Source of the DNA: Diadema antillarum
Taxonomy: Eukaryota
Direction of reading: 5' to 3'
Assembly (NCBI RefSeq): GCF_040938485.1
Contig: NW_027271421.1
Coordinates: 502,567 to 566,566 of the forward strand
DNA length: 64,000 nucleotides
The translations under genes and the position numbers were made by a program. Positions within the stretch are counted from its first letter, which is position 1. Every line of letters begins with the position of its first letter. Below, one piece after another: positions 20,840-44,753 of this stretch. The notes below the pieces were generated by a model, which saw only the letters and a program-made list of their open reading frames with translations, had not been told where the DNA came from and ran no database searches.

Positions 20840-20998
20840 AAAGAGCTAGAAGATGGGGATGTCGAGTTCACATCTATCGAGCTGCACACCAGTGTTGGAG
20901 TACCATCGGCCGTTCTGAGCCAAGGGCCCCGGAAGTCTCCGACCACGAGACCCAAGTTTAGGGTCTATACTCACCATGGCACGGTGTCTGGAACAAAG
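20840..20998 (+). CDS. PARP4: PARP4 ortholog, WGR-like region part 1 (KELEDGDVEFTSIELHTSVGVPSAVLSQGPRKSPTTRPKFRVYTHHGTVSGTK)
   Basis: CGACAG acceptor and AAAG|GTAGTA donor. Aligns to the human PARP4 segment DFEVAKYNTLEKVG...FLISSHFLLDDG. In phase with the next exon. Confidence 0.65.
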
Positions 20999-21318
20999 GT
21001 AGTACTTACAGTTTGGCATGCATACTGTATGCACACTATGGGACTTTAGTGACGATTACTTGATGAACTGCTATTATTTCACTATCTTTTAGAGATGACA
21101 CTCGCTCCGACTGAACGAACATTGACATCGAAATATGAAACCATTTCTGAGATAGAAATATCAGTAGAGTAACATTTCTAAAAACAAAAACAAAGAAAAC
21201 AGGAAATGCGTATTCATGAAATACTTTTTAGTACATAAATTGTTGCTCTTTTTGGGGTGGCATTTTAAGACATTAGAATAGTATAATCCTAAAGTCAGGA
21301 ATTTGGCACTTTTCGCAG

Positions 21319-21474
21319 GATGAAAATTCTGGGACGAAATCGAGTCGCTTTGCTCAGGCTGCCCCAGCCGCCCTGAAGATGTACAATGAGGAGTACAAAG
21401 CGTGGACGTCTAAAGGGATGACAAGAACGAAGAAAATGCTGTCACGTTGGCTTGGATCCAACATTCTGACCAAG
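21319..21474 (+). CDS. PARP4: PARP4 ortholog, WGR-like region part 2 (DENSGTKSSRFAQAAPAALKMYNEEYKAWTSKGM...NILTK)
   Basis: TTTCGCAG acceptor and AAG|GTAAGA donor. Aligns to human SEDASEYFENYIEELKKQGF. Confidence 0.75.
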
Positions 21475-21667
21475 GTAAGACAGAGGACGAATACTTTCAA
21501 ATTCGCATTCCCGATCTCATTTCCCTTCTCCTTCATTAGTTGGCTTTAAATTGGTTAATTACCTCTTATTTCTATCGTATAATCAACTACTATGTACTCA
21601 AGATCATTTATGATTTTATTACATTATGTTACGGTCTGTGATAGAAAAAAAGAATCACTTTGAGATC

Positions 21668-21968
21668 AATTGAATTGAATTGAATTGAATTGAATTGGAT
21701 TGAACTGAATTGAGGGGCCCACATTCTACAAGCATTGTCTTTTTAGTGGGTCCCTCCATTTTTCGATGTCTTACGTATTGTATCGTCTTTATCACTTCAG
21801 TCAATTTTCATTACAACGTATTTCTTATTCCAAGGTTCCTCGATTATATTTTTCTCAATTTACTTTGTTTTGACTATGCAATCTTATTCTCTGTTACCAA
21901 AGAAAGTGAAATGTTTATGTTCTTTTCGAAAAATGAAATAAAGCATGAATTGAATTGAATTGAATAAT
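21668..21968. repeat. SINE-like element bounded by (GAATTG)n arrays. The same family tail recurs at 34778-34812.
   Basis: (gaattg)n lies at 21670-21716 and 21946-21966. The 3' body ttttcgaaaaatgaaataaagcatgaattgaattg matches 34745-34790 ttttcgatgattggaaataaactatgattgaattgaattg. A gggcccca motif is shared with 11855 and 15300. Confidence 0.5.
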
Positions 21969-22455
21969 TCTCCGCATATCTGCTACTTTTCTCTTTCTAA
22001 AATTGCCGGTCTCGTTTCTAATCCTGGGCAGTGACCGAACTACTCCTAGGGTTGGTAGAGATGAATTGATATGTATTTAACGTTTTGATTGTAAAATGAA
22101 ACATTGATAATCATGATGCTGATGAAAAATGTTATCAGATAGTGGAAATATGATAATGTGAGAACAGCTAGAGTCTGTATCCTTCCCCTTTCCCGATTTT
22201 ATGTACATTGAAGTACAACTGCTGGGGCAGAAAACTGTAGCGATAAATTTTGATCAGGAGCTATGAATCGTATGACAAACCAAATGCAGTGACCTAGTCG
22301 ACATAGGCGATGAAAAACGTACATAATGAAGGTTATATGACCAAGTCGTGTTTATTCAGTGACTTTCCACTGCAGCTACAGGTAGGTATCTTGTCAAATG
22401 CTGAACACATTGTCTGATCGTGTCGCAACAAGAACGTTACTTTTTAACTCGACAG

Positions 22456-22593
22456 CGCCTCCTCGAGTCGCAGACAGCGAGTGGGGAAGTGTCCGAAGCA
22501 GTTGCCATGCTAGCAGACAACTTGTGGAAGGAAGCGATGGGCGAACTTTCCAGGATACTCACTGTACCCGTCAAGAACATCCCACCGGGAAAG
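22456..22593 (+). CDS. PARP4: PARP4 ortholog, helical (PARP regulatory) domain exon
   Basis: Reads RLLESQTASGEVSEAVAMLADNLWKEAMGELSRILTVPVKNIPPGK, matching human VSDLVEMIWAEALGHLEHMLLKPV. GACAG acceptor and GTAAAG donor. Confidence 0.85.
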
Positions 22594-43108: not shown

Positions 43109-43680
43109 GTAAGGAGCAAGATTAGTGGAAAAAAAATCGATTTCAAATTGCAGAGTATATGCACCCATCTTAAGTCATTAACATTGGAACAAACAGAAGC
43201 AGAGCTAGAAATTCCTTCATGAATTGTATATTCCTAACAAGAATCAGTTCACGGAATAACCGTCATACTTTACTCTCTGTACGACCGAAACAATAACCAT
43301 GTAACCATCTTATTCAGTACCATGGCTCACTCAGTGCAACTCAGGCTCCCATAATCATTCCTGAGCTGTTTTGTTTTGTTTTGTTTTATTTATTTCAATA
43401 CGGTTTAAAAAAAACTATCAGCCTCAGGGCTGTTTTTCAGTGAGTCCGTATATATCAATATACATGGTATAAAACAACCAAAAATAATACAGAACAAAAG
43501 ATAGCATACACAAATACGACAAGAAACATATTCACAAAACATCACGTCTGCTTCGAACAGCAAATGCTCTCTAAATATTTCATGACTGCAGAGGTTTTCC
43601 GTTTACTGCATATAGACAGTGCACATAATCTTGAATGAAAATACGAATCCAAACTTGATTATCCTGTACCATTCATGCAG

Positions 43681-43864
43681 AAGAACGTGACTTTATGTAT
43701 AACTTTCACCACGTCCCGTCACTATTATCAGGACGAGCAGTCCCGCTGGTGTTGGGAGGTCGCTGACATCGAAGGAGAATTCGGCATCGACTGCAGCAAA
43801 GTGACCGAGGCACTTCAGCAGCCTGACCAATACCTGGACATGGATGACACGCTGCTTGAAACTT
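43681..43864 (+). CDS. PARP4: PARP4 ortholog, C-terminal region exon (KNVTLCITFTTSRHYYQDEQSRWCWEVADIEGEFGIDCSKVTEALQQPDQYLDMDDTLLET)
   Basis: Matches the human C-terminal segment ...DGFWKLTPELGLILNLNTNGLHSFL. CATGCAG acceptor and GTAAGT donor. Confidence 0.75.
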
Positions 43865-43989
43865 GTAAGTTTCTCTTCCCGCTTCTTCCCCTGTTAACTT
43901 ATCAAATTCAACTGGGTCCGAGTGTCCGAGAGAGGGAGAAATCATGGACGAGTCGTTACAAATCAGCGAGTAGTGAAACAGGATCATAT

Positions 43990-44022
43990 GAAAAATACAA
44001 ACACACACACACACACACACAA
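43990..44022. repeat. (CA)n microsatellite in a PARP4 intron
   Basis: Direct read. Confidence 0.9.
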
Positions 44023-44490
44023 CACCACAAATCATACATTTCATTGAAGACTGCTGGGCACTTTCAGCTTGAATATAGTGTTTGTGGTATAGACTCTAGA
44101 CCCAATAGCTAAAATAGACGTAAGATATAAGACGTTGTTCAAATGCACTTATCAGGTCATAACTTGAAAACGTCTTTTTGTATGTGTATGGGAGAATGTG
44201 GTCTTCCAAATGTTGAAAGCGACACCCTCCAATAAAACTGATTCACATTAGACTATGAAAGAATTTTGCCCTTAGTCTCACTACTGATCCACTTTACATT
44301 GCTCGCATGATTCGGCAGTCAACAGGTGACAAACAAAATGTACCATGATGTTCTTCCATCCTGTTTCATTGATAGAGCAAGAAAGTCATTTTGCCATAAG
44401 TCTGACAAGCGTCTTGGGTAACCTTAGCAGCAAAGGGTGACCAACTGTTAACTCCAAGTTTGACTCTCTGTTGTCTTCGTCCTGCTATAG

Positions 44491-44753
44491 GGATGTCAAG
44501 CCTCGGCCTCATCAAGAGGATTGTTGCAACTCTCCTTGTCACCGCCCTGCTCTCATGCCTGGAATCGACACTCCACTCAACCGACATCGACGTCGACAAG
44601 GTTCGTTTGTCGTGGGAGAAGACTTACCAACCGCCGTCTGAGTTATGTACCCTGGCTGTGAAGTGTGGTCTGGACGTAACCTGGAAGGACGCCCTCACCG
44701 TATTTCAATTGGAGAACGCCCTAGATGACATCGTCAATATAGTTTCAAGTTAG
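44491..44753 (+). CDS. PARP4: PARP4 ortholog, last coding exon (W MSSLGLIKRIVATLLVTALLSCLESTL...DDIVNIVSS, then stop)
   Basis: Matches human GIQSLGVKGRECLLDLIATMLVLQFIRTRLEKEG. TAG stop at 44751-44753. A candidate AATAAA lies about 400 bp downstream (45149-45154). Confidence 0.8.

Follow-up and report, generated by a model that had tools for sequence, protein, structure and literature searches.

A 27-exon PARP4 gene model in the genome of the sea urchin Diadema antillarum

Does a 64,000-nucleotide stretch of the genome of the diadematid sea urchin Diadema antillarum (assembly GCF_040938485.1, contig NW_027271421.1, positions 502,567 to 566,566; hereafter the window) encode a whole PARP4, the poly(ADP-ribose) polymerase of vaults, and where would such a gene begin and end? 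An initial annotation had proposed a near-complete PARP4 orthologue spanning 20840-44753, with 26 GT-AG exons joined in consistent phase. Our reconstruction indicates that the locus is very probably an intact, single-copy-looking PARP4 gene, comprising 27 coding exons over 25.5 kb with a predicted product of 2001 amino acids (aa; ~225 kDa). It is an ordinary orthologue, already annotated in a congener, and the analysis confirms a gene model and makes no discovery; the lineage-specific points, namely BRCT loss, a variable Met-rich repeat linker and an unrecognisable tail, are of modest comparative interest. The value is mainly one of annotation, adding one more PARP4 orthologue to a family annotated across metazoans, from a group whose vaults have already been studied biochemically.

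Structure and identity of the gene

Starting from stop-free segments, we ran Pfam on rough concatenations, which returned PARP, a borderline PARP_reg, VIT and vWA, and then retrieved homologues. Junctions of the conserved core were placed by enumerating all phase-compatible GT..AG pairs between adjacent tblastn high-scoring segment pairs and scoring the joined peptides against seven homologues, and the exons at the 5′ and 3′ ends were placed by reading the sequence directly. The resulting model lies on the plus strand, from 19249-19362 through 44491-44753 (Table 1). All 26 introns of the spliced model are GT-AG with matching phases, and the 6006-nucleotide (nt) coding sequence holds no frameshift or premature stop; its sole in-frame stop is the terminal TAG, compared with 120 and 100 stops in the remaining two frames. 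GC content is 50.5% in the exons versus 35.8% in the introns. Intron 8 (24848-29180) is clearly the longest at 4333 nt, the others ranging from 255 to 1477 nt. An alternative donor at 40699, in the same phase as that chosen for exon 24, was rejected because the protein of the congener Diadema setosum reads NMSK/ICQC at that junction (slashes mark exon boundaries).

Exons 2-27 cover precisely 20840-44753, so that splicing by eye proved accurate in the initial annotation: its span and count of 26 stop-free exons were rebuilt independently. Four of the five peptides that it quoted are exact, each within one plus-strand frame (24816-24842, 30194-30226, 31369-31470 and 38373-38405); the fifth, LLFHSSKARNFLGILSRGILLPK, straddles the exon 7/8 junction (24413/24749) and is present in the spliced product. 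The description 'near-complete' understated the case, as an upstream coding exon carrying the ATG had been missed. This exon 1 has A at -3, and an in-frame TGA lies 17 codons 5′ of its start. Its residues 17-38 can be aligned with PARP4 from crinoids, molluscs and hemichordates, and the D. setosum protein contains the entire exon, sharing the start MSLQEPRSE. Measured against the D. setosum model, the predicted coding sequence with exon 1 lacks nothing.

That model, XP_072174381.1 (RefSeq, 'protein mono-ADP-ribosyltransferase PARP4-like', 1909 aa), is 93.5% identical to the D. antillarum product end to end over 1901 aligned residues, indicating that the automated RefSeq pipeline reached the same gene structure in D. 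setosum. From its N terminus onwards the predicted protein comprises a WGR-equivalent, a helical domain (HD), an ADP-ribosyltransferase (ART) domain with H337-Y377-E447, an acidic linker, VIT and a vWA domain with a D-x-S-x-S motif. The rest of the ITIH-like region comes next, then a short helical segment resembling 14-3-3, an acidic linker of 630 aa that contains 24 Met-rich repeats, and finally a tail of 131 aa for which helices are predicted.

Table 1. Coding exons of the PARP4 model and the tandem array within exon 25 (window coordinates)
Feature	Position	Strand	Residues (aa)	Description
Exon 1	19249..19362	+	1-38	ATG start; donor CAG/gtagaa
Exon 2	20840..20998	+	39-91	WGR-equivalent, first part; acceptor gtcgacag/AAA, donor AAG/gtagta, phase 0
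Exon 3	21319..21474	+	92-143	WGR-equivalent, second part; tblastn to seven homologues; GT-AG, phase 0
Exon 4	22456..22593	+	144-189	Helical regulatory domain begins; aligns with human PARP4 CAT structure 8sx1 from residue 144
Exon 5	23060..23242	+	190-250	Helical domain; homologue-scored junctions
Exon 6	23730..23890	+	251-304	Helical domain into ART; homologue-scored junctions
Exon 7	24276..24413	+	304-350	ART, catalytic H337 (LLFHSS)
Exon 8	24749..24847	+	350-383	ART, Y377 (GSGIYFGDS)
Exon 9	29181..29364	+	383-444	ART; 3′ of intron 8
Exon 10	30194..30377	+	445-506	Catalytic E447 (EDEYTVYQ); acidic linker aa 470-505, 39% D+E
Exon 11	30895..31025	+	506-549	VIT begins
Exon 12	31315..31533	+	550-622	VIT core
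Exon 13	32005..32216	+	623-693	VIT end
Exon 14	32477..32558	+	693-720	ITIH-like region; also in D. setosum protein
Exon 15	33102..33239	+	721-766	ITIH-like region
Exon 16	33717..33903	+	767-829	vWA, MIDAS-type (metal-ion-dependent adhesion site) D-x-S-x-S motif (LDRSTSM)
Exon 17	34159..34426	+	829-918	vWA
Exon 18	35675..35774	+	918-951	vWA end
Exon 19	36357..36545	+	952-1014	ITIH-like C-terminal part
Exon 20	37155..37235	+	1015-1041	Matched in D. setosum protein
Exon 21	38223..38405	+	1042-1102	Conserved TSFVAIEER segment
Exon 22	39013..39132	+	1103-1142	Linker; matched in D. setosum protein
Exon 23	39689..39838	+	1143-1192	14-3-3-like helical segment (LPPTHP); tblastn to echinoderm, hemichordate and amphioxus PARP4
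Exon 24	40530..40672	+	1193-1240	14-3-3-like segment; donor read-through to TGA 40700-40702
Exon 25	41218..43108	+	1240-1870	1891 nt; acidic low-complexity linker and tandem repeat array
Tandem array (in frame, exon 25)	41873..42934	+		24 units of 12 or 16 aa (AEPVMM/AEPVML...), 17% Met
Exon 26	43732..43864	+	1871-1915	C-terminal tail domain begins
Exon 27	44491..44753	+	1915-2001	Stop TAG 44751-44753

Database comparison places the product among PARP4 proteins, clade 5 of the PARPs. Of the 120 best database matches, nearly all bear the name PARP4 or poly(ADP-ribose) polymerase, the others only generic names. This word-index search did not bring up the D. setosum protein, although its collection includes it; the protein emerged from the exhaustive search with exon 27. 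The top match is from Strongylocentrotus purpuratus (core peptide, E value 7e-246, 45% identity), with Amphiura, Ptychodera, Asterias and Branchiostoma next in rank. Pfam PARP matches aa 290-450 of the full product (E 3.4e-27), and the helical domain reaches 26.4 bits against the PARP_reg cut-off of 26.8; a Pfam check that had been suggested thus recovered PARP, VIT and VWA_3, with PARP_reg borderline. Among solved structures, aa 144-466 match the catalytic fragment (CAT) of human PARP4 at E 1.9e-73 and PARP1-3 at ~1e-19, aligning to chain positions 8-326 of 8sx1_A (human PARP4 residues 242-573, HD included). The HD of human PARP4 itself comprises residues 282-364 (PMC10711553).

H337 and Y377 are invariant across 121 aligned PARP4 sequences, and E447 is present in 119 of them. 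The initial annotation had singled out H-S-S in place of H-G-S as a departure from the canonical motif. The motif is present as described, but it is no peculiarity, because serine is the commonest state after the catalytic histidine in the alignment (S 71, A 34, G 14); H-G-S is a minority state there, mainly mammalian. Human PARP4 carries the H-Y-E triad yet performs mono-ADP-ribosylation only (PMC10711553), and by analogy the same activity would be a reasonable expectation for the Diadema protein.

The N terminus and the C-terminal third

Pfam returned no direct WGR match on the full product. A profile of the N-terminal region, built from 27 PARP4 proteins with the Diadema protein as its first row, matches human PARP4 146-250 (E 6.7e-20), a segment that has the BRCT on one side and, from residue 242 on (PMC10711553), the catalytic domain on the other. 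The WGR of human PARP4 has been placed between these two domains, with the W-G-R residues themselves not conserved (PMC10450202, PMC10711553); the Diadema protein has H-H-G at these positions. The label 'WGR-like' is therefore supported by orthology with the human segment. Searched as a single sequence, aa 1-148 also returned antibody lambda light chains from the PDB (E 2e-4 to 0.2), which we reject as compositional or accidental matches, given that the profile recovered human PARP4. The piece involved, PRKSPTTRPKFRVYTHHGTVSGTKDENSGTKSSRFAQAA, lies at window 20924-21400 (aa 67-115) and aligned with framework 2-3 sequences.

Downstream of the VIT-vWA half, the helical segment of exons 23-24 (…LPPTHP…) aligns with PARP4 of echinoderms, hemichordates and amphioxus, and matches Pfam 14-3-3 weakly, below the cut-off (E 1e-4). 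Other invertebrate PARP4 proteins (P0005, P0003, P0006) carry a C-terminal half-14-3-3, reaching E 7e-31 over profile positions 129-223 in amphioxus, and the Diadema protein keeps just a weak remnant of it (window 39689-40672); we found no mention of this feature in the PARP4 literature examined. The last 760 aa consist of the acidic linker with its 12- and 16-aa Met-rich repeats and of the tail (aa 1871-2001), encoded by exons 26-27. The exon 25 product is acidic (isoelectric point 4.5, 22% D+E), and Tandem Repeats Finder, a repeat finder and protein-level units together give the array higher-order periods of 84, 264 and 444 nt.

Several results at the two ends of the protein weigh against reading it as a PARP4 of the vertebrate kind throughout. 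Pfam found no BRCT in the 2001-aa product. No similarity to any non-Diadema PARP4 was detected in aa 1240-2001 by phmmer against 120 homologues, and this stretch gave no significant match to a hidden Markov model (HMM) of 42 vertebrate C-terminal (MVP-interaction) domains and no match to PDB chains, full-length human PARP4 included. Among 1.8 billion representative proteins, the sole real match of the exon 27 peptide was the D. setosum orthologue. The sole signal came from a direct hhalign comparison of the tail with the vertebrate domain, at 10.6% probability over 26 columns, pairing LLETWMSSLGL…IKRIVATLLVTALLS with …SLG…LIATLLVLQ, a motif spanning 16-26 residues. AlphaFold, run on the D. setosum tail as a single sequence, gave an all-helical model that is not reliable (pLDDT, the predicted local distance difference test, 43).

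An echinoderm intermediate did not bridge this gap. The Asterias tail reached 47% against the vertebrate MVP-interaction domain (hhalign, 113 columns), but a BLASTP comparison of the Diadema and Asterias tails did not establish homology to the vertebrate MINT/MVPID, and the Asterias tail used as a bridge query returned one uninformative fragment. As homology to the MVP-interaction domain went undetected in aa 1240-2001, vault anchoring through the tail is unproven; the candidate assignment of the tail as an MVP-interaction domain draws on its position and predicted helicity. The vertebrate-like domain order put forward in the initial annotation thus held from the WGR-like region to vWA, whereas its MVP-interacting C-terminal region had been assumed.

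The missing BRCT was also sought outside the model. An HMM of 97 PARP4 BRCT regions, run on six-frame open reading frames of at least 15 aa across the window, including 19 kb upstream, found none; the best score (E 0.46) was on the wrong strand within an intron. BRCT is likewise absent from the PARP4 models of D. setosum, which begins at the same Met, and of S. purpuratus, Amphiura and Asterias, and present in those of crinoids, holothurians, hemichordates, amphioxus, molluscs and vertebrates. The domain occurs in vertebrate PARP4 and in that of most invertebrates. Because related echinoderm models lack it too, its absence looks like a lineage feature and is no ground for excluding membership of PARP4. 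Human PARP4 binds vault RNA mainly through its BRCT (PMC10711553), and the BRCT-less proteins of echinoids, ophiuroids and asteroids prompt one to ask what retains vault RNA in these groups. A candidate upstream BRCT exon at 11041-11109 (tblastn E 0.33) was unconfirmed.

Another place for the gene to end is conceivable. PARP4 proper could finish by read-through of the exon 24 donor (40672) into the TGA at 40700-40702, giving ~1250 aa, with exons 25-27 belonging to a separate downstream gene or an optional isoform fused by the predictors. The S. purpuratus protein, at 1255 aa, stops ~20 residues past the 14-3-3-like segment, several further invertebrate PARP4 proteins end at the same place, exons 25-27 resemble no PARP4 outside Diadema, and the open frame of the repeat exon is in part due to the multiple copying of a single unit lacking stops. 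The 218 non-repeat codons that open exon 25 are, however, also free of stops, and the exon begins mid-codon with its own initiator context absent. All three downstream junctions are GT-AG with agreeing phases (2, 0 and 1). In the independent RefSeq model of D. setosum these exons are joined likewise and the junction peptides, LLET/W/MSS across exons 26/27 among them, are identical; its final 86 aa are 91% identical to the exon 27 peptide. Vertebrate PARP4 moreover has the same layout, in which a long disordered linker leads into a helical C-terminal domain (PMC10450202, PMC12280208). We therefore regard the shorter gene as very unlikely and retain the 27-exon PARP4 model.

Within that model, a more ambitious interpretation, which we consider doubtful, is that diadematids remodelled the part of PARP4 that targets it to vaults: the BRCT would have been lost, and the C terminus replaced, or diverged past recognition, into a copy-number-variable Met-rich linker and a lineage-restricted helical domain. 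If so, the remodelled domain might attach to MVP by a novel mode or direct the enzyme to a place outside vaults. The repeat linker of Diadema evolves fast, as does a disordered segment of primate PARP4 whose rapid evolution is cited in PMC10450202. Because the tail is unrecognisable, the human structure is no basis for assuming MVP docking in sea urchins.

Other PARP4 models have tails of a different kind. An N-terminal actin fragment (…KAGFAGDDAPR..FPS.VGRPRHQGVMVGMGQKD…) ends those of a brittle star, an acorn worm and bivalves (P0002, P0003, P0017, P0020 and P0023), in some cases with a Pfam actin match; because it recurs across phyla, the fragment may be real and not a fusion artefact. The window contains no actin-like fragment of the kind seen in the PARP4 tails of Amphiura, Ptychodera and oyster.

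The VIT-vWA half

VIT and vWA are also found together outside PARP4, in ITIH and VWA5A proteins. Pfam places VIT at aa 534-644 (E 8e-37) and VWA_3 at aa 785-938 (E 4.9e-18). Against solved structures, aa 519-1102 match human PARP4 608-1183 at E 1.9e-120 and ITIH4 at 5.8e-16, so that the ITIH matches are weaker by ~100 orders of magnitude. A rival proposal would make the locus a VIT-vWA gene other than PARP4 (ITIH- or VWA5A-like) or a PARP4 pseudogene copy in decay. The shared domains and the weaker structure matches to ITIH4 and ITIH1 might lend it colour, but at the level of sequence it is already refuted: ITIH1/4 and VWA5A lack the PARP domain that here lies, with an intact H-Y-E triad, on the same phase-consistent spliced transcript model, and the coding sequence is undisrupted, its substitutions relative to D. 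setosum scattered along the length with conserved motifs intact.

A best match to ITIH had been named in advance as the outcome that would count against PARP4, and none of the 120 best database matches is named ITIH. On these sequence comparisons the predicted gene is orthologous to PARP4, not to ITIH or PARP1-3. Pfam, the structure matches and the D. setosum model bear out the central proposal of the initial annotation, a PARP4 orthologue that combines WGR-like, helical, H-Y-E catalytic, VIT and vWA regions.

Surrounding sequence, proposed function and related proteins

The window is metazoan genomic DNA of ~38% GC with microsatellites and short GT-AG introns. Rfam and transfer RNA scans of its whole length returned nothing, including no vault RNA and no intronic small nucleolar RNA. 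On the minus strand, 5′ of PARP4, exons of the carboxylesterase family (Pfam COesterase) occupy 304-12531, among them the exon with the GESAG active site (9722-9991). Two segments, 366-3268 and 11496-14189, lie ~11 kb apart and share 76-93% identity; they therefore point to two tandem carboxylesterase paralogues, arising by a duplication of ~11 kb, the second cut by the window start. In PARP4 intron 1, just 3′ of exon 1, a 49-nt minisatellite (19391-19684) comprises approximately six head-to-tail copies of 94-96% identity. Stretches of intron 8 flanked by G/C homopolymers (~26700-27100) resemble others at ~19780, 46900-47100 and 47500 and may be a dispersed repeat. From 45000 to 64000, 3′ of the PARP4 stop, we recognised no convincing protein-coding exons; (TA)n, (CA)n and similar low-complexity repeats abound there (families D2 and I2-I13).

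If the product works as human PARP4 does, its H-Y-E site would bind NAD+ and transfer single ADP-ribose units, the WGR and helical domains would modulate enzyme output, and the VIT-vWA block would make protein contacts. The long disordered linker may free the catalytic half to move in the vault lumen, and the C-terminal helical domain, judged by position and predicted helicity, might anchor the enzyme to the major vault protein (MVP). The initial annotation had taken the locus to imply a vault system in this organism. Such a system was already expected, so nothing is newly implied: vaults have been purified from sea urchins, and in 2005 the genome of S. purpuratus was noted to contain homologues of VPARP and TEP1 (PMC550661). 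Neither MVP nor TEP1 genes were found within the window.

The closest relative, the D. setosum protein, resembles the Diadema antillarum product in its start, stop context, domain order, acidic linker, Met-rich repeats and tail, and in all junction peptides except that at the exon 16 acceptor. There it carries six extra residues (LFSSQQ), and the window has TG, not AG, before that position. Beyond scattered substitutions, it differs in holding 18 repeat units versus 24 here and is 92 aa shorter.

More distantly, the PARP4 proteins of S. purpuratus (P0001), Amphiura (P0002) and Asterias (P0004) are the best-scoring homologues, at 42-45% identity, and share the order WGR-HD-ART-VIT-vWA-14-3-3-like with no Pfam match to BRCT. 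They part from the Diadema protein at the C terminus: the S. purpuratus model ends after the 14-3-3-like segment, the Amphiura tail bears an actin-like fragment, and the Asterias tail, unlike that of Diadema, is similar to the vertebrate MVP-interaction domain.

Human PARP4/VPARP (PDB 8SX1, 8SWY, 9BW6, 9BW7 and 11JF; PMC10711553, PMC12280208, PMC10450202) is the best solved-structure match for both halves of the protein. The two share the WGR-HD-ART module with its H-Y-E triad, an ITIH-like VIT-vWA block, a long disordered region and a C-terminal domain that is helical in human PARP4 and predicted to be so in Diadema. Human PARP4 differs in its N-terminal vault-RNA-binding BRCT, which the Diadema protein lacks, in H-G-S versus H-S-S at the catalytic histidine, and in MINT/MVPID (1562-1724), for which no counterpart is demonstrable by sequence in Diadema; conversely, the 14-3-3-like segment and the Met-rich repeats of the Diadema protein are absent from the human one.

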